IMG/VR virus record: IMGVR_UViG_3300020030_000124
Coordinates: 1 to 6,302 of that record
Direction: 5' to 3' (one strand)
From: a virus
DNA: 6,302 nt
How positions within the stretch are numbered: position 1 is the first letter of the stretch; the number at the start of each line of letters is the position of its first letter. Positions 1-6,302 of this stretch are shown here, piece by piece. Made by a program: the position numbers and the translations under genes. The notes beneath the pieces were generated by a model. That model did not search any database and was not told the origin of the DNA. It saw only the letters and a list, made by a program, of their open reading frames with translations.

Positions 1-121
1 AGATACCAAAAGAATCGTTCAACCTCTTGTGCTTGACCTTATCTTGACATTTCGTCAATGCCACAGCGGCCAAACGACGAACAAGAGGAAGAGTATGATA
101 TTCGGGTTCCGCTTTCTTACC
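1..121. repeat. Terminal redundancy, copy 1. Identical to 6182..6302, marking a circular 6181-nt genome.
   Basis: Base-by-base comparison of 1..121 with 6182..6302 shows 121/121 identity in direct orientation. The repeat lies inside the Rep reading frame, as expected for a circular contig linearised with overlap. Confidence 0.97.
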
Positions 122-1693
122 ATAATCAATCCTATTATAACGGAAGGAATAATTACGAAGCTCAAAATCAACCAAGTCCTTATCGTCAGAATCCTCAAGA
201 GTCTGATAAAAATCAACAAGGCGATTGTAGTCATAACGATTCCAAAAGGACACTATTTTTTCCGAGAGAATTCGGAGAGTTCGTTCTCTGCACGCAAAGC
301 AGCCGGCATATCGTTCGGGTTCGGGATAGAAGTTTGCTCCAAGTTCATCATAGTACGTCCGAAAGAATTTAGACATCGAGAGAAAGAATCGATAGCAGCG
401 GGATAAGCGAAAAACCGGGTCCAAATTAACACCGTCATAAAGACGACATTCAGACAAAATGAGAACATCGCTATGCGGTAGATTCTCTTTAGGCGAAAGA
501 ACATTTCGTTCATCATTTGTTTTTCCATAATTGTCTACATAATTTAAATATTGCTTACAAAAAGATAACATACTCTGTTTAGAAAGAGGATTGGGATTAA
601 AAGGATCCAATGCTAAATCACCGCATCCGCTACAAATGACTCGTTCGGGCGCCGTGAATGCAGAATATAATAACTGGTAAACACTCGATGGAAGTTTACG
701 AACAGGGTCCGAAAATCGGGGGAATAATCGAAGGAGATACGGCCACGAAGGCTTAACTGTGCGAAAATATCCATCGCGAACAATGCGGACTCCATTAAGG
801 CAATTATCGGCAACTTCGTCAATTTCGGCAATTCGTACCTTTCGAGGAAAGAGATTTGATTCTGTAAATCCAATGGAATGGAAGGATTTAGGTCGCACCA
901 CTTTTGGCATCTGAGTATAAAAGTCGGGTAAAGCGACAAAACTGTTAACATACGACGCAACATACGGAGCTGCGAATCCTCGCGACAATGACGCATCACA
1001 ACGTCCGTAAGACCAAGCCTTAGATACATTTTCACAAACAGTTTGCGAAAATCTTTCGGAATCGGAAAACAATAACAAATGCCAATGCGGGCGGAAACTG
1101 GTAGGGCCGTATTCTGATACAGCGTAGTAACGTAATTTTTCATCCGGGTAGTAACTTCTTAAACGTTTTAAAAATAAATCTAGATCACGATTACAGATAT
1201 AGGGAATCCTATTCGGAACATCATGCTTAACCTTTCCAAGAATAGACAAAAAATCCTTAGGCTTCATAGGATAAGAAAACTGAACTTCGGGATCCTTAAA
1301 AGTACGCTCAACAGTAGAATTCTTCAACCTAACAGAGGCAGAGCGAGGAACGCTACGAAAACCAAACAGATAAATATTAGTGTCACAAGCATCCAACTCA
1401 TTAATGTCGGGAACACAGGGTACATCCGCAATATCATCCGTACAAGCTTCAATAACTGAAACCTCCAAAGTAGGAAGGAAACAAGGAGCATAAGTAAGAG
1501 TAACAAAATAAACATAACGGAACTGGGCAGAATAAGTAGTGAGGAGGTTTGTCTGAATACCGGAACGACGAAGAATACAAGAAGGACAAGAACCGCAAGA
1601 AACAAGAACGGGTTCATGCGTATATTTATTAACAACCGTACGAGGGTTCTGACAACGAGTCACTAACTTATTCTGCAATTCCTTTGTAATCAT
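1..1693 (-). CDS. VP4: Replication initiation protein (HUH/rolling-circle endonuclease, Microviridae VP4 / phiX174 gpA-like). These are the N-terminal 564 codons. The frame stays open across the window edge and continues at 6181..6165.
   Basis: Hand translation from the ATG at 1693..1691 gives an uninterrupted frame down to base 1. The product starts MITKELQNKLVTRCQNPRTVVNKYTHEPVLVSCGSCPSC. It carries RCR motif I FVTLTY (aa 63-68), HUH motif II HWHLLLF (aa 203-209) and double-Tyr motif III YVASYVN (aa 244-250; compare phiX174 gpA YVAKYVN). It is absent from the ORF track because no stop lies inside the window on this side. Full length is 569 aa after joining with 6165..6181. Confidence 0.93.
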   Translation of the reverse strand, partial: MITKELQNKLVTRCQNPRTVVNKYTHEPVLVSCGSCPSCILRRSGIQTNLLTTYSAQFRYVYFVTLTYAPCFLPTLEVSVIEACTDDIADVPCVPDINELDACDTNIYLFGFRSVPRSASVRLKNSTVERTFKDPEVQFSYPMKPKDFLSILGKVKHDVPNRIPYICNRDLDLFLKRLRSYYPDEKLRYYAVSEYGPTSFRPHWHLLLFSDSERFSQTVCENVSKAWSYGRCDASLSRGFAAPYVASYVNSFVALPDFYTQMPKVVRPKSFHSIGFTESNLFPRKVRIAEIDEVADNCLNGVRIVRDGYFRTVKPSWPYLLRLFPRFSDPVRKLPSSVYQLLYSAFTAPERVICSGCGDLALDPFNPNPLSKQSMLSFCKQYLNYVDNYGKTNDERNVLSPKENLPHSDVLILSECRLYDGVNLDPVFRLSRCYRFFLSMSKFFRTYYDELGANFYPEPERYAGCFACRERTLRILSEKIVSFWNRYDYNRLVDFYQTLEDSDDKDLVDFELRNYSFRYNRIDYGKKAEPEYHTLPLVRRLAAVALTKCQDKVKHKRLNDSFGI

Positions 1694-1998
1694 TTTCTAT
1701 CAGTAAAATTAAGTTTCATCTGGCGAGGTTTGCGACCACGAGCAAAAGAAACATGAACAAATGTGCGATATTTTATAAGCTGATCAAATGCAAAAGAAGA
1801 CTTCTCAATCAACGAAATAAAATCATCTACAGAAAGACCGGAAGGCTTCAAGTCAACAGCATCACCAGTCAAATGCTGCGAATTGGCAGATCCATTACAA
1901 GCATCGTTCTGTTCCCTAGTACGAAAAGCAGAAGTAACAGTGAAATGAACATTCCAACGCAGAAGCCATTCGACGAATTTCATCAACTCTGGATTCAT
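1690..1998 (-). CDS. Minimal zinc D-Ala-D-Ala carboxypeptidase-like cell-wall peptidase (Peptidase_M15_3 / M15A-like), 102 aa. Putative lysin.
   Basis: The ORF-track protein contains TSAFRTREQN (compare family SGYRxxxxN). It also has SQH42-LTGDAV-D49 (SxHxxGxAxD, an H-x6-D zinc-ligand pair) and FVH82V (third ligand, family consensus fvHvD). The ATG is at 1998..1996. The TGA at 1692..1690 overlaps the Rep ATG as ATGA. Confidence 0.8.
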   Translation of the reverse strand: MNPELMKFVEWLLRWNVHFTVTSAFRTREQNDACNGSANSQHLTGDAVDLKPSGLSVDDFISLIEKSSFAFDQLIKYRTFVHVSFARGRKPRQMKLNFTDRK

Positions 1999-2001
1999 GA
2001 C

Positions 2002-2091
2002 TTACGAAAATATTTGAGCAATAGACGTAAGGAGACTAACAGCAGCCGCAATAACTGCAGCCCAGATCTTGGACTTAGTTTCATTTTTCAT
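2002..2091 (-). CDS. 29-aa ORF resembling a Sec signal peptide or single-pass membrane peptide. It is in frame with the downstream M15 peptidase.
   Basis: Hand translation from ATG 2091..2089 gives MKNETKSKIWAAVIAAAVSLLTSIAQIFS, with TAA at 2004..2002. It has a charged n-region, an ~18-residue hydrophobic core and an S-I-A/Q motif fitting the -3/-1 rule. 14 of 28 codons end in T, matching the bias of the confirmed genes. It falls below the size cut-off of the ORF track. Confidence 0.45.
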   Translation of the reverse strand: MKNETKSKIWAAVIAAAVSLLTSIAQIFS

Positions 2092-2254
2092 CGGGAATAG
2101 CTTTAAAAGTTGAACAAGAAGAAACAAGAAGGACACAGTCCGGAGTTATGTAAGAAGAGACAAACTGGGAAATGTCCTCAACAGGTACAAGAACGGTTTC
2201 GTTCTGGTTGGGATTCATCCTTGACTGAATAGAACACAAATAATACTTTTCCAT
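2081..2254 (-). CDS. Hypothetical small protein, 57 aa.
   Basis: An internal ATG at 2254..2252 of the track ORF 2081..2461 gives MEKYYLCSIQSRMNPNQNETVLVPVEDISQFVSSYITPDCVLLVSSCSTFKAIPDEK. 27 of 57 codons end in T, like the confirmed genes. The start lies ~40 nt downstream of the candidate -7 box. The 3' end overlaps the next ORF by 11 nt. No family recognised. Confidence 0.35.
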   Translation of the reverse strand: MEKYYLCSIQSRMNPNQNETVLVPVEDISQFVSSYITPDCVLLVSSCSTFKAIPDEK

Positions 2255-2295
2255 AAAACTAAAATTTAAATTATACATTGATTTTAAAGACAGTA

Positions 2296-2328
2296 CAAAG
2301 ATATAAATAAAATTTTGAGAGAACCAAA
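2296..2328 (-). promoter_or_regulatory. Candidate Bacteroides-type promoter (-33 TTTG, -7 TAnnTTTG) driving the minus-strand gene train.
   Basis: The minus strand reads TTTG (2328..2325), then a 21-nt spacer, then TATCTTTG (2303..2296). It sits in a ~22% GC stretch just upstream of the first small ORF. Motif match only. Confidence 0.35.
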
Positions 2329-2365
2329 CAAAACAGTGTATTATTAACATAAATAAACAGTAAGT

Positions 2366-2380
2366 TGGACGGGTGGACGG
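2366..2380. repeat. Short tandem direct repeat TGGACGG-g-TGGACGG, followed by a partial third TGG. Iteron-like; function unknown.
   Basis: Read directly: tggacgg at 2366..2372, g at 2373, tggacgg at 2374..2380, then tgg at 2381..2383. It lies in non-coding DNA between the AT-rich promoter region and the large hairpin. Confidence 0.6.
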
Positions 2381-2387
2381 TGGTCTG

Positions 2388-2460
2388 TGAGTTTGCGTAT
2401 ATAAGACAAGGGAGAGACTGAAAGCGACGAGGTAAATCGCTTTCCCTTCGGGCAAACTCA
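2388..2460. other. 73-nt nested imperfect hairpin in non-coding DNA. Candidate ssDNA or RNA structural element.
   Basis: Three stems were hand-paired. The outer stem pairs 2388..2396 (tgagtttgc) with 2452..2460 (gcaaactca), 9 bp. The middle stem pairs aaggga 2408..2413 with tccctt 2443..2448, 6 bp. The inner stem pairs aagcga 2422..2427 with tcgctt 2437..2442, 6 bp. The loop is 9 nt (cgaggtaaa). Confidence 0.6.
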
Positions 2461-2502
2461 TGTAGGCTTCGCCAAAACAATTTTAGGGGTATAGCAGCGA
2501 CG

Positions 2503-2519
2503 GGAGAGAGGAGCTCTCC
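2503..2519. other. Small hairpin GGAGAG-aggag-CTCTCC, with a further GGAGA arm at 2521..2525.
   Basis: Perfect 6-bp complementarity between 2503..2508 and 2514..2519. CTCTCC could alternatively pair with the downstream GGAGA in duplex form, as the inverted repeat TCTCC-g-GGAGA. Confidence 0.4.
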
Positions 2520-2582
2520 GGGAGATTGCATACGCGTTGCAGACGTCAAGCTTCAAGGAAGGCAGTACTATAGCCTAACGGC

Positions 2583-2614
2583 TCTGATTTCAGTCCTACG
2601 TCCCGAAATTCAGA
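2583..2614. other. Hairpin with a 9-bp stem, one bulged T and a 13-nt loop.
   Basis: tctga-tttc (2583..2591) pairs with gaaa-t-tcaga (2605..2614). t2609 is bulged. Confidence 0.45.
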
Positions 2615-2656
2615 AGGTGTATAACCACGCTACGCGCGGTTGCCGGAAGTTACTCC

Positions 2657-2693
2657 AAACAGCAAAACCCGACGCGCATCACTGCGAGCCGGG
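2657..2693 (-). terminator. Intrinsic-terminator-like hairpin plus T-tract, downstream of VP2.
   Basis: The minus strand reads CCCGGCTCGC-AGTGAT-GCGCGTCGGG (2693..2668). That is 9 pairs including one G-U, plus one mismatch. It is followed by TTTTGCTGTTT (2667..2657) and starts 24 nt after the VP2 TAG stop. Confidence 0.5.
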
Positions 2694-2716
2694 TAAACAC
2701 ACAACAAACAAAAGTA

Positions 2717-3784
2717 CTACCAGGGCAGAAAGTTACCTACAGTATTACCGATAGAGGTGCCATAATGAACAGCCTTATCAGCGTCATAATACTTATGCCT
2801 TTTCTTCTCATTTCTGGAACGATACCATTCTTCAATATTCTTACTGCGAGCATTATCACGGGAAAGACCAAGCTTAAATTCCTCATCATAATAAGCCGCA
2901 GAAGACTGACTAGCGGCAATATTAGCCGCAATTTGAGACTCAGCAATACGAGAAGCAACATGATTTGAAATATGCTGTCCACGAGCACGGGCAGCAGCCA
3001 AGGCTTCCTCTGCGATAGCTTTTTTAGCTTCAGCATACGAAAGATAACCAGCCGACATACGCTGATAGTAATCCGCAGCCTTAACATTCAGATCAAGCTG
3101 CTGCTGCTGGTCAAGATATTTATTCATAATACCTTTAGCTTCATTATCAAGAAGCATACCAGAGTGCTGAGCCTTCATAACATTGCCAGTCATTGCCATG
3201 TTATTCACTTCCTGCTGCTCCCTTGCATAACCAAGCTGGGCACGAGCCAAACCAGTAGATTTCAAATAACTACGGGTTTCATCAGTAAGTTTTCCCCAAT
3301 CAATATTAGAAAGAACTTCCATAGCCTTAGCATCAGCAAGCTGCTTAGCGCCTTGCAAATTAGACTTTTGAGACTGCATAAGCTCGTACTGAAAAATGTT
3401 ACCGATAGAACTTGATATACCGGAGTAATCAGCCTGGAAAGGCTGCATGACAGCAGGACCGGCAGACTGGGCAGAAGAACCAGGACCGGCAGACTGGGCA
3501 ATACCGGCGGAACCGCCGTTCATCATCAAATAAGGATTCAAACCAGCTTCTTCAAGACGTTGACGTTGCGCGGATGCAGTATTATATGCATTTTCCTTAT
3601 TCCACATATTTTCCTGAAAATCGCGCTGCTGCATTGCCATACGCTCGTTGAACTGGTTATTCATCTGATTTATCTTATAGTTCATCTGGTTGGTCTCCCG
3701 GACATTCTGTCTATTCTGTGAATTCTGAATTGCAGAAGTACCAATGCCAAAAAGACCACCAGCGATTGAACCAAGAAGACCCAT
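2717..3784 (-). CDS. VP2: Minor capsid / DNA pilot protein (Microviridae VP2-like), 355 aa.
   Basis: The N-terminus is glycine-rich and hydrophobic (MGLLGSIAGGLFGIGTSAIQ). Q/N-rich coiled-coil-like regions follow (NQMNYKINQMNNQFNERMAMQQRDFQENMW...RQRLEEAGLNPYLMM). Position and size are typical of Bacteroidota-type microvirus VP2. The ATG at 3784 shares one base with the upstream stop (TAATG). Confidence 0.82.
   Translation of the reverse strand: MGLLGSIAGGLFGIGTSAIQNSQNRQNVRETNQMNYKINQMNNQFNERMAMQQRDFQENMWNKENAYNTASAQRQRLEEAGLNPYLMMNGGSAGIAQSAGPGSSAQSAGPAVMQPFQADYSGISSSIGNIFQYELMQSQKSNLQGAKQLADAKAMEVLSNIDWGKLTDETRSYLKSTGLARAQLGYAREQQEVNNMAMTGNVMKAQHSGMLLDNEAKGIMNKYLDQQQQLDLNVKAADYYQRMSAGYLSYAEAKKAIAEEALAAARARGQHISNHVASRIAESQIAANIAASQSSAAYYDEEFKLGLSRDNARSKNIEEWYRSRNEKKRHKYYDADKAVHYGTSIGNTVGNFLPW
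3454..3500. repeat. In-frame tandem duplication inside VP2: a perfect 20-nt repeat at 27-nt period.
   Basis: caggaccggcagactgggca occurs at 3454..3473 and again at 3481..3500. This encodes AQSAGP-GSS-AQSAGP in the Gly/Ser/Ala linker of VP2. Confidence 0.9.
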
Positions 3785-4266
3785 TATTCAGAGGAAGCGA
3801 CATCGGCGGAAGCAGCAGCCGCCTTTTCTGCCTCTTGTTTAGCAGTTTCAGCATCAATCAATTCCTGTGCCTGGGACTCAAGATTTTCAGCATAAGCAGA
3901 CAACTCCTTAGACCAGGCAATAATCTCAGAAGGAGTCTGGACATGCCGAGAGCGAACCGTCGCCAAAAGGTCATCGTCAGACATGCCGTCCATAATCTGC
4001 TGAATCTGGGAAGCAGACTGTTTACTCTGTCCAAACTTGGAAGCAACAGCAAGACCGGCACGGGAAGCCAAGTCCTTGGTATGAAGAAGCAAACGGATAT
4101 CAGAAGTATAACGCACCGGACAAGATTCTTCATTATCGTAAATTTCAACACGAAGCTGTTCGGTAGAATCAAATTCGGGAGCAACTGCAAAAGCATCCGG
4201 AGAAACATCGGGAACAAGACCGGAACCTTGTTCCAGACTGTTCAAACAATTAAATTTTCCAATCAT
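3784..4266 (-). CDS. Hypothetical protein, 160 aa from the ATG (162 aa if the TTG at 4272 is used). Possible internal scaffolding (VP3-like) protein.
   Basis: The ORF sits tightly between VP1 (8 to 14 nt gap) and VP2 (1-nt overlap). Its C-terminal tail is acidic and Ala-rich (ELIDAETAKQEAEKAAAASADVASSE). The track start at 4272 is a TTG; the first ATG is at 4266..4264. The functional call rests on position and size only. Confidence 0.6.
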   Translation of the reverse strand: MIGKFNCLNSLEQGSGLVPDVSPDAFAVAPEFDSTEQLRVEIYDNEESCPVRYTSDIRLLLHTKDLASRAGLAVASKFGQSKQSASQIQQIMDGMSDDDLLATVRSRHVQTPSEIIAWSKELSAYAENLESQAQELIDAETAKQEAEKAAAASADVASSE

Positions 4267-4280
4267 AATCAAAACAATAT

Positions 4281-6137
4281 TTAATAGGGAACACCATCAC
4301 GAGACAAATTTCGGGCAACATAGCAACCGATATAAGAGTTGACCAGCAACTGGTCAGTATCCCAAGTAGAATCAGCCTTGACACCAAAAATAGGATCAAG
4401 AACAGAAGGGTTAACCTTAAAGAACTTATAATTCAAAGCAACCTTAGTATTAGAATCGGGGGTAGAACCGCCGAATTGTGCCCAACCGGAAATTAAAGAC
4501 TCAGAAACCGGAGAAACCCAAGATTTCAAAGTAGTGGTAAACGCTCCATTAATGACATCAAGCTTAGTCTTCCAGTTGAAATAACGAGGATTATAACCTG
4601 CATTAAACAAATTAAAAGCAGTAGCAAGTGCAGAATTGAAAATCTGTGTCATAGGAAGGACTTCCATACCGATATTATCGAATTCCGGAATCGGGAGAGA
4701 CTCAGCATCAGTAACAAGCAGCTGACCATCCTGTCCGGTAATAGTATAGTCAAGCAAAGGAACGGCATGATAAATACACATAACGACACAATGTTCATCA
4801 GTAGTATAAGAGAAAGAACCGTTTCCTGCGCCGACACCTTTACCGGCAATAACGGCAGTATCACCTTCACCAGCAAGGTTATTGTTCACAACCTCACTGA
4901 TATCAAGGTTACGGGAGATACCACCGATATAAGTACACATATTGGAAAGAGCCTGGGGCAAGTTCACGCCAAAGTGCTTGCGGATCTGTTCACGATAGTC
5001 GGAATCGCCGGACTGAGAAATTTCTTTCCAACGTTGAAGGGCTTCGGCCTGGCGAAGGGCAAGAACCGAAAATTGGGACTGCAAAGCAGACAAATCAGAA
5101 ACCAAAGGAGACTTGATACCAATAGCAGAACCGGAAGGAATATTAAGAGTAGTCAAACTAGTAGAGCTGTTATTAGTAGCCAAGAGAGTATTCGAAACCG
5201 CAGAAATGAATTTACCGTCAGTAGTTCTAAAACCGGCCTTCAAATCGCCACCGGGCGGATCAAGATTGACTACAGCAACATCTCCAAACTGAGAATTCGG
5301 GAGAACGCCCATAAGCATATCCTTGTTCCAGTTACAGTACTTGAGGTCAAACATTGTGTCAGATTTCCAATAATCATCAGACTCCGAAGGAATAGAATCA
5401 AAAGGGATGAAAGCGGGAGAAACACCAGAAAAATAATCAACATTATAAGAAGCAGGATTAGCATTTTCCCATTGAGACCAACGGAAAAAATCCTGGTAAA
5501 TCTTCTGATAGGCAAGAATCGGAAAAACGTTTACATAATTATTCTGAATATACTGCTGAGAAAAACTTGATGAATCATCACTATTCTTTAAAGAAGTAGA
5601 CCACCAACGACTACCAGGAGTAGGAACAGAAGACACAAAGTTTCCATAACCAAGATAAGACAAAAGTTTAAAAGACAAATCTCCTCTGAAAAAACCAAAC
5701 AAATTTTTTGAACCAGAAGAATTTCCAGGATTCGGAGAAGTTCCATTAAGCCGATAAGGGAAATAGAATAAAGAAGATAAAGGCAAAGACGGAAGATAAG
5801 TACCCAAAGACAAATTCTGAGTCAAAGACAACGCTTGAATCTGATTGATATCCTGCATCTGAGTCAACACGGAAGGAGCGGACTTCCAGAGAAGACGCAA
5901 CGGCACAGCATAGAAGTCAAAGTACTCACGCAAACGGGTATAAGCAGAAGTTTCAACAGGCTGAGTACGGGTAAAATACTCAACATTGAACTTGTACTTA
6001 TCACCAGGCATAGAAATATCCCAGTAAACGGGGAGAAGCTCACCAATTTTCGCAGTAAACGCATTTTTACGTCCAATATCAAATCCAGAACGGTGAGGGC
6101 GGTTCTGAAGATTGGACATTCCGGTGTAAGAAGCCAT
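4281..6137 (-). CDS. VP1: Major capsid protein (Microviridae VP1 / phiX174 F-like jelly-roll), 618 aa.
   Basis: The N-terminus reads MASYTGMSNLQNRPHRSGFDIGRKNAFTAKIGELLPVYWDISMPGDKYKFNVEYFTRTQPVETSAYTRLREYFDFYAVPLRLLWK. This is the characteristic microvirus capsid start (conserved G-L-P...P-D...R-T-P...R...FFVP-R-LW pattern). The ~620 aa length fits the Alpavirinae-type capsid with large insertion loops. Confidence 0.96.
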   Translation of the reverse strand: MASYTGMSNLQNRPHRSGFDIGRKNAFTAKIGELLPVYWDISMPGDKYKFNVEYFTRTQPVETSAYTRLREYFDFYAVPLRLLWKSAPSVLTQMQDINQIQALSLTQNLSLGTYLPSLPLSSLFYFPYRLNGTSPNPGNSSGSKNLFGFFRGDLSFKLLSYLGYGNFVSSVPTPGSRWWSTSLKNSDDSSSFSQQYIQNNYVNVFPILAYQKIYQDFFRWSQWENANPASYNVDYFSGVSPAFIPFDSIPSESDDYWKSDTMFDLKYCNWNKDMLMGVLPNSQFGDVAVVNLDPPGGDLKAGFRTTDGKFISAVSNTLLATNNSSTSLTTLNIPSGSAIGIKSPLVSDLSALQSQFSVLALRQAEALQRWKEISQSGDSDYREQIRKHFGVNLPQALSNMCTYIGGISRNLDISEVVNNNLAGEGDTAVIAGKGVGAGNGSFSYTTDEHCVVMCIYHAVPLLDYTITGQDGQLLVTDAESLPIPEFDNIGMEVLPMTQIFNSALATAFNLFNAGYNPRYFNWKTKLDVINGAFTTTLKSWVSPVSESLISGWAQFGGSTPDSNTKVALNYKFFKVNPSVLDPIFGVKADSTWDTDQLLVNSYIGCYVARNLSRDGVPY

Positions 6138-6164
6138 AAAAAAAACATTTAAAAGTAAAACATA

Positions 6165-6302
6165 TCAATCCCGGTAAGAAAAGATACCAAAAGAATCGTT
6201 CAACCTCTTGTGCTTGACCTTATCTTGACATTTCGTCAATGCCACAGCGGCCAAACGACGAACAAGAGGAAGAGTATGATATTCGGGTTCCGCTTTCTTA
6301 CC
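6165..6302 (-). CDS. VP4: 3' end of the replication initiator gene. It duplicates 1..121 and adds the last 5 codons plus the stop.
   Basis: Continuing the 1..1693 frame across the junction gives ...NDSFGI-FSYRD-TGA, with the stop at 6167..6165. Bases 6182..6302 are the redundant copy of 1..121. Confidence 0.9.
   Translation of the reverse strand, partial: GKKAEPEYHTLPLVRRLAAVALTKCQDKVKHKRLNDSFGIFSYRD
6182..6302. repeat. Terminal redundancy, copy 2. Identical to 1..121.
   Basis: 121/121 identity with 1..121 in direct orientation. Confidence 0.97.

Follow-up and report, generated by a model that had tools for sequence, protein, structure and literature searches.

A folded, non-coding element exchanged between gut microviruses and locked to strand asymmetry: a candidate structured RNA beside a dif-like integration site

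Introduction

The single-strand origins ssoA and ssoU of rolling-circle plasmids and the minus-strand origins of G4, phiX174 and M13 are non-coding, GC-rich regions of 150-300 nt with several hairpins, on small single-stranded DNA (ssDNA) replicons. They work in one orientation relative to replication, pass as cassettes from one replicon to another that is unrelated, are specific to their hosts, and can be dispensed with or replaced. In all of this they resemble an element that we describe here in the IMG/VR virus record IMGVR_UViG_3300020030_000124, of which positions 1 to 6,302 were analysed; this whole stretch is referred to as the window. The element lies in a GC-rich non-coding island (2361-2716) and is folded over ~2362-2660. 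It differs from the single-strand origins (sso) and other minus-strand origins in that these fold on the displaced or packaged strand, whereas the wobble pairs of the window element are selected on the complementary, A-rich strand. Further, it shares neither sequence nor an RSB or CS-6 motif with the sso origins, and Rfam contains no such family to compare it with.

ColE1 cer consists of a XerCD core and ~180 bp of accessory sequence, which encodes the small structured RNA Rcd. ColE1 is likewise a small replicon that has no recombinase of its own and uses the Xer proteins of its host. If the window element is an RNA, a structured RNA gene adjoining a Xer core is the nearest analogy. However, Rcd is ~70-95 nt long, proteobacterial, and acts in multimer resolution and a cell-division checkpoint, while the element is ~300 nt long and is found by an integration site in Bacteroides phages. 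The two have no similarity in sequence or structure, and the transcription of the element is only predicted.

A third group of comparable systems consists of ROOL, GOLLD and HEARO, as they appeared before their function was known, and the pRNA of phi29. These are also large, modular and highly conserved phage-borne folds, with invariant junctions that hint at tertiary structure or protein binding. To our knowledge none of them is known from ssDNA phages. Unlike the element they show no lock to strand asymmetry, and no Rfam model matches the element.

As for the locus itself, dif-like att sites have been reported for Bacteroidetes microvirus proviruses, some of which have extra dif-like sites (Krupovic and Forterre 2011, PMC3091885). 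These att sites are the same feature as the AT-rich motif at 2333-2360 of the window, which is a 28-nt neighbour of the island and not the island, and the folded element is not described in PMC3091885. In the literature we found no description of a microvirus non-coding RNA or of a folded intergenic element. The folded cassette, its spread across lineages and its locked polarity appear to be new; the attP and the terminator that accompany it are ordinary.

Results and discussion

The fold and its covariation

The element folds into at least seven helices, which are maintained by compensatory changes. It is modular: the core is invariant, and both the 5' domain and the inserts are optional. In the core the helices are P2 (2494-2502/2533-2540), H2 (2572-2575/2580-2583), H3 (2584-2590/2606-2613, with an optional inner hairpin) and H4 (2616-2644, GGU[GUAU]AACC-A-CGC-UAC-GCG-C-GGUUGCC), and RNAalifold gives the same ones. 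In an alignment of 93 distinct core sequences, 94.5% of the cells pair, compared to 33-42% for slid partners. Both sides have changed in eleven pairs; shuffled alignments give 5.8 +/- 1.3, and none of them (0/500) reaches 11. Whole pairs are swapped in H2 and H3; for H3 this means U-A in 61 sequences and C-G in 30. H4 shows a triple compensatory change in contig L175 (CGC/GCG to UGU/ACA), and its conserved A.C has become A-U or G-C in L175, L176, L177 and L181. The joining sequences of the core, UACGCGUUGC, GUCAAG and GGCAGUACUAUA, are invariant, which suggests that they reflect tertiary structure or a protein partner.

The 5' domain is built from a long stem, GGTCTGTGAGTTTGC (2382-2396) with GCAAACTCATGTAGGC (2452-2467), hairpin 1 (GAAAGCGA/TCGCTTTC, 2420-2427/2437-2444) and hairpin 2 (CCC-TTC-GGG, 2444-2452). 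Here 94% of the cells pair in an alignment of 107 distinct sequences, and hairpin 1 contains a swap between G-C and U-A (62 and 41 sequences, respectively). The domain is present in genomes of the window type and in mar62 but absent in the mar40 type. The stem-loops that a sequence-only reading of the island had pointed out are thus real and conserved among relatives. In general, the region shows strong conservation, compensatory covariation and no conserved reading frame, so none of the observations which that reading had named as speaking against it was made.

Some pairings are not supported. Folding or the repeat search suggested a helix closing the junction (GGcAGUACU with AGuUACUCC) and an 8-nt complementarity between the 5' domain and H3, but both contain positions that vary without compensation. 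Reading the loops as C(UUCG)G tetraloops was rejected, since covariation in L020 shows triloops.

Other parts of the element vary between genomes. L005 (bajarodmic virus 1134, ~1560-1700) and also L023, L025, L027, L046, L129, L130 and L136 have an extra module of ~130 nt with further hairpins, ending in GGGGTCGCAAGCGAC, that separates the 5' domain from the core. Type-B elements have had the middle of their core replaced.

The motif G-U-A-U-A occurs three times (2397-2401, 2489-2493 and 2619-2623), always at the 5' side of a helix; its contexts in the window are GCGUAUAUAAGAC, GGGGUAUAGCAGC and GGUGUAUAACCAC. A repeat finder aligns 2397-2417 with 2489-2509 at 76% identity. This recurrence could be a repeated site of protein or tertiary contact, or the trace of an internal duplication. 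The short direct repeats that had been noted in the island are merely weak two-copy matches.

No match to Rfam 15 was found in the island, neither when the whole window was scanned at E<=10 nor when the island was scanned alone, where the only hit was a 9.8-bit noise match to a long non-coding RNA. ARAGORN finds no tRNA or tmRNA in the window. The element most likely represents a structured RNA family that is absent from Rfam.

Spread and horizontal transfer

The element is carried at at least 133 loci or contigs, with 116 distinct sequences; such sequence counts, here and below, are not counts of independent events. Two motif scans gave 46 and 49 IMG/VR contigs and 87 metagenome contigs, nearly all of ~6.2 kb and mostly from the human gut. 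By blastn the island is 85-90% identical in close relatives and 72-74% identical in distant microviruses, and a stretch of 47 nt is 98% identical in Dulem virus 262, a genome with nothing else detectable in common with the window. A covariance model of the core, R1, built from the 93 core sequences, scores 233 bits on the window and also recognises two divergent subtypes, type B (85-97 bits) and the Dulem-262 type (62-66 bits), each at full length.

The core of the window is 83-84% identical to that of L135 and L161 despite a VP1 identity of 29% over ~100 aa, and therefore the element moves horizontally. By this comparison of cores and capsids, transfer between deeply divergent microviruses is shown. 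There are two subtypes of the element, and each of them is found in both types of genome, i.e. with the element antisense to the genes or on the gene strand.

R1 does not match phiHBP1, a lytic microvirus of Bacteroides fragilis (L186, PV598014.1), which also lacks any large intergenic region. The absence of the element there indicates that it is accessory and not needed for lytic growth. phiHBP1 is the only cultured Bacteroides microvirus.

A host gene or a prophage in reference genomes was rejected as the source of the element. Scanning 185,579 species genomes for the H4 motif gave 26 matches, with other spacer lengths and in unrelated taxa, where we estimate that ~57 are expected by chance; we judged them to be chance matches. 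The same applies to the matches in L037/L151 (a 40-kb contig) and L170 (21 kb). L054, L086, L109, L120, L121 and L137 were rejected as prophages, being over-length or chimeric assemblies.

A few carriers are unusual. L180 has its intact copy at 3104-3303 and, directly upstream, a second, degenerate and AT-rich copy of the core (2906-3044, 32 bits, 34% G+C), which looks like a decaying tandem duplication. L153 (OGNB01003925.1, 5916 nt) carries the element, but for its T-rich strand no open reading frame (ORF) of 120 aa or longer is listed, and tblastn gives no similarity to the VP1 or pilot protein of the window. In the 27-kb contig L139, VP1 breaks off at residue 479, and an unrelated ORF comes after it.

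Strand of the fold

We consider it on balance probable that the folded element is a structured non-coding RNA of ~300 nt encoded on the plus strand of the window. The argument rests on wobble pairs, which differ between strands: a G.U on one is an A.C on the other. Read on the plus strand, the minority variants comprise 124 G.U and 35 A.C (32 and 8 in the best-supported helices), and positions where the majority is a wobble are G.U in five cases and A.C in one. In the 107 sequences of the 5' domain there are 547 G.U cells and 75 A.C cells, and this domain is more stable on the plus strand than on the minus strand in every one of them (-34.4 vs -24.7 kcal/mol). Had the T-rich strand decayed by C->T changes, the bias would be the reverse, and it is therefore due to selection. 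The adjoining terminator, described below, has the opposite strand preference and serves as an internal control. Since the wobble pairs are selected on the strand complementary to the presumed packaged one, a free folded RNA is indicated rather than DNA. The sequence-only reading had treated a structured RNA and a priming site as equally possible; the wobble asymmetry shifts this towards an RNA on the plus strand and leaves priming as unlikely.

Orientation follows strand asymmetry

Of 93 near-complete genomes, 86 have the element antisense to the genes and 7 have it on the gene strand, as do mar40, mar45 and mar49; the phages with this second arrangement are very distant ones. The sense strand of the element is the A-rich strand in all 93, with an AT skew of +0.16 to +0.41; the orientation therefore follows strand asymmetry and not the genes. 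A fixed orientation relative to replication polarity, as in sso-type origins, is what this positive skew shows. Such a lock could also arise neutrally, by polarity-preserving template switching during rolling-circle synthesis.

At four-fold sites the coding strand of the window has 67% T, while the coding strand of phages with the element on the gene strand has 58-65% A and 7-17% T. A T-rich coding strand is the usual pattern of ssDNA phages, and the T-rich strand is presumably the packaged one. The group with genes on the purine-rich strand consists of L003 (mar40), L008 (mar45), L009 (mar49), L038, L116, L135, L161, L175 and L183, with an AT skew of the coding strand of +0.36 to +0.41 over the whole genome. 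Provided that the packaged strand is the one marked by T-richness, these microviruses would be negative-sense, and we found no mention of such a group in the literature.

In L038 the sequence ATTATACTTGATATAAT (1780-1796), in a separate intergenic region (1686-1856), resembles the phiX174 origin (AACTTGATATTAAT in phiX) and lies on the T-rich, non-coding strand. In genomes of this type ACTTGATAT sits within an AT-rich palindrome, and the same motif is found in L116, L135 and L175. From its likeness to phiX the motif is a candidate nick site for Rep, and its location on the T-rich strand supports that this strand is nicked and packaged. Of 90 window-type genomes, 74 have CTTGATAT on the T-rich (coding) strand, always at the same site within VP1 (~4900-4907 in the window), which conserved codons could explain. 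No phiX-like nick site was found inside the island; the CTTGAT motifs lie elsewhere.

RNA or origin of replication

Several observations weigh against an RNA. No Bacteroides -33/-7 consensus is found upstream of the element. The sole promoter-like match, a sigma-70-like TTGAGA-18-TATTAT on the plus strand (2315-2344) that overlaps attP, is at chance level (one found, 1.2 expected), and it is not evidence of a promoter because the promoters of the Bacteroides host differ. A plus-strand terminator for the folded element was not found either. In genomes with element and genes on the same strand, the core abuts or overlaps the stop codon of Rep and is therefore a cassette without a promoter of its own. 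The minimum free energy of the core is equal on both strands, and the helices with the best covariation, H2, H3 and H4, are strand-symmetric, H4 having one conserved A.C on the plus strand. The three best-defined loops, which belong to H2, H4 and hairpin 2 of the 5' domain, read UNC/UNNC on the plus strand and c(GNA)g/c(GNNA)g on the T-rich strand, and the latter are classic, very stable mini-hairpin loops of DNA, reported at phage origins. When folded with DNA parameters, the T-rich strand has a z-score of -3.1, with none of 100 shuffles equally stable, compared to -1.4 for the plus strand. Further, an ssDNA phage requires a complementary-strand origin, 2255-2716 is the only large non-coding region of the genome that is available for it, and the orientation lock fits a DNA origin directly. 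The dependence among the sequences noted above also belongs here.

Alternatively, the element could be an ssDNA origin, where the GC-rich hairpins of the packaged, T-rich strand resist single-strand DNA-binding protein and recruit primase or RNA polymerase for synthesis of the complementary strand. The lock in 93/93 genomes, including the 7 with genes on the other strand, the cassette-like transfer between distant replicons, the DNA-type loops and the z-score are all as expected, and no promoter is needed, which suits the genomes where the core lies against the Rep stop codon. However, on the T-rich strand the conserved wobbles would be A.C mismatches (221 core cells and 547 cells of the 5' domain), and pairing in the 5' domain falls from 94% to 83%. 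The intermediates of compensatory change are 4:1 in favour of G.U on the A-rich strand, contrary to mutational bias. The element is also absent in phiHBP1 and many other microviruses. Finally, the ssoA motifs RSB and CS-6 (TAGCGT/A) are not present as such; all that is found is TAGCAG/TAGCGG (TAGCRG) at the start of the core, and no RSB-like sequence was seen. We consider this explanation unlikely. For the earlier idea of priming as in phiX174 and G4 this means that loop types, z-score and orientation fit, but that the packaged strand would have to tolerate many conserved A.C mismatches.

It is also conceivable that the two functions are combined. In one form the element would be a replication-polarity module, whose complementary-sense transcript of ~300 nt primes or licenses the conversion of ssDNA to duplex, in the manner of an RNA-II-like origin, and which, as it sets its own direction of action, can be swapped whatever the orientation of the genes; we regard this as a long shot. 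If true, it would cover the negative-sense lineage (mar40, L038 and L135 type) as well. In a second form, which we give slightly less credit still, the element would be a complementary-strand origin whose transcript in the A-rich sense, made on the T-rich template, folds like RNA II of ColE1 to act as primer, so that selection on the helices would work through DNA and RNA alike. A wobble bias favouring the A-rich strand would then no longer conflict with loops and a z-score of DNA type on the T-rich strand. This reading also accounts for the lock, as an RNA of the A-rich sense has the polarity for priming the complementary strand. On the other hand, the known primers of ssDNA phages and sso are merely ~20-30 nt, and an RNA made on a single-stranded template stays hybridised and has no need to fold. 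The failure of the promoter search, and phiHBP1, which manages without the element, also count against it.

Genome setting, attP and terminator

The window comprises one circular microvirus genome, complete at 6181 nt, and a terminal redundancy of 121 nt (1-121 = 6182-6302). Its host is Bacteroides, and its nearest relatives in GenBank are faecal microviruses of lemurs and rodents, with ~81-83% identity genome-wide. All genes are on the minus strand (Table 1). That they are otherwise tightly packed had been observed before, and this is borne out by gaps of 27 nt between Rep and VP1 and 8 nt between VP1 and the scaffold gene as well as by ATGA overlaps; 2255-2716 is the sole sizeable non-coding stretch. 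The island is a compound non-coding module, made up of the folded element and a terminator of the gene strand, with attP just outside. The AT-rich spacer next to attP presumably holds the promoter of the early genes.

Table 1. Positions of the folded element, its neighbours and the genes in the window.
Feature	Position	Strand	Remarks
VP1	6137-4281	minus	
Scaffold	4272-3784	minus	
Pilot protein	3784-2717	minus	stop codon 2717-2719
Intrinsic terminator, VP1-scaffold-pilot operon	2655-2693	minus	24 nt past the pilot stop codon
Universal core of the element	2485-2660	plus	~180 nt; helices P2, H2, H3, H4
5' domain of the element	2362-2475	plus	long stem enclosing two hairpins
dif-like attP (Xer-type integration site)	2333-2360		CAGTGTATTATTAACATAAATAAACAG; conserved right (phage) arm ATAAATAAACA; coordinates assigned through homology of the conserved motif, not from a junction in the window genome
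AT-rich spacer	2254-2332		19% G+C; from orf58 to attP
orf58 (small ORF)	2254-2081	minus	
Two further small ORFs	2136-2002 and 1998-1690	minus	
Rep	1693 through origin to 6165	minus	

Judged from its sequence, 2655-2693 is the intrinsic (Rho-independent) terminator of the capsid-pilot operon. Its hairpin is CCCGGCUCGCA-GUGA-UGCGCGUCGGG (2693 to 2668), followed by UUUUGCUGUUUGG (2667 to 2655); owing to an internal mismatch it escaped a simple terminator scan. In 95 of 104 relatives the minus-strand form of the hairpin is the more stable one (mean -15.0 kcal/mol, compared to -11.7 for the plus strand), and its GNRA loop and U-tract exist on the minus strand only. A role in termination, one of the functions proposed earlier for the island, therefore applies to the hairpin at its 3' end (2668-2693) but not to its main body. 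As the folded element lies between this terminator and the next promoter region, it is outside the mRNAs of the gene strand.

L132 is a metagenome contig of 34.8 kb with a window-like phage, whose homology to free genomes ends ~100 nt upstream of the element and gives way to bacterial genes. The flanking gene for universal stress protein (Usp) encodes a product 89-91% identical to Bacteroides proteins, and the same gene is found without phage, i.e. as an empty site, at L187:5652-5840. A window-like microvirus is thus integrated in a Bacteroides chromosome downstream of the Usp gene, at the dif-like palindrome CAGCATTAT-GTTTAA-TATAGCGCTG, on the evidence of a single junction (L132 ~5940). When attL (L132), attB (L187) and the attP of a free phage (L047) are compared, they have the core TTTAATATA in common and their flanks are exchanged. 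The crossover falls within TTTAATATA, and the site is a dif-like imperfect palindrome. The suggestion that the island is a relic of integration is right in that a dif-like attP is present, but this ends at 2360, outside the body of the island.

The proximity of attP could mean that the element is a DNA accessory region of the Xer/dif site, either a sequence for binding proteins like those of cer and psi or a folded ssDNA attP like that of CTXphi. The island starts 1-2 nt after attP in window-type genomes, an attP-like motif accompanies the element in mar40, and phiHBP1 has neither element nor large non-coding region; the extra dif-like sites of some proviruses mentioned in the introduction would also fit. 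However, covariation of base pairs is not expected in double-stranded sites for protein binding. An inverted-repeat search of 2230-2730 found no second or inverted copy of attP, so no paired sites like those of the CTXphi attP were seen in or around the island. The distance between attP and element is ~60-75 nt in L047, L006 and L132, and genomes of the L135 type have no clear attP adjoining the core. Taken together this makes an accessory region very improbable.

Composition and coding potential

The G+C fraction is 0.529 (127/240) at 2461-2700 and 0.217 (26/120) at 2221-2340, exactly as had been counted by hand. In segments of 356 nt the genome has a mean of 0.418 (sd 0.036) and a maximum of 0.517 at 2370, and the island, with 0.508, ranks 34 among the 6181 start positions. 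The island had also been described as rich in CpG, which is true only weakly: there are 27 CpG, with an observed/expected ratio of 1.18 compared to 1.01 genome-wide, giving rank 193, and the genome maximum is elsewhere, at 638. The CpG excess is marginal.

In agreement with the earlier view that the island contains no credible ORF, there are 3-10 stops in each of the six frames across 2254-2716. Core lengths of relatives differ by single nucleotides and cover all three residues modulo 3, and therefore no frame is conserved. An ORF of 147 aa on the plus strand (2972-3415), antisense within the pilot gene, has internal stops in 36 of 49 relatives and, by this comparison, is not a gene. A-rich strands have few stop codons and hence readily yield long antisense ORFs. 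Since this downstream ORF is not conserved, a role of the element as a cis-regulatory leader was rejected. In Dulem virus 257 a 'hypothetical protein' of 68 aa (L006:1463-1666, XCD03224.1) is annotated over the 5' domain; it is probably a spurious gene call, as the region shows covariation and indels.

A hidden protein-coding gene, for which this annotation and minus-strand ORFs of 92 and 126 aa overlapping the island region could be cited, or a chance fluctuation in composition has next to no probability, given the stops in all frames, single-nucleotide indels between close relatives, variation that is compensatory and not codon-periodic, and a nucleotide conservation far above that of the real genes.

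What the element may do

If the folded element is a structured RNA, as we prefer, it would be a plus-strand transcript of ~300 nt that starts next to attP and is convergent with the capsid operon. Its promoter would lie in the attP/AT-rich region. We guess that the RNA may act in trans in a temperate life style linked to Xer and dif, with Rcd at ColE1 cer or the RNA-based immunity of P4 and P1 as parallels; the main alternative is an RNA linked to replication. None of the specific functions would we call better than unlikely.

The element takes up 5% of a genome of ~6 kb and is exchanged across lineages with almost no protein similarity, which implies a strong function. Microviruses belong to the most abundant phage groups in the mammalian gut. 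As an RNA, the element would represent the first family of structured non-coding RNAs in ssDNA phages, and it would be a candidate for the lysogeny regulator that is missing from phages with neither integrase nor repressor. As a DNA origin, it would show where gut microviruses start their complementary strand and would be a case of sso-like cassette exchange in phages. With either reading, the orientation of the element is a marker of replication polarity, and it exposes microviruses with genes apparently on the strand that is not packaged.

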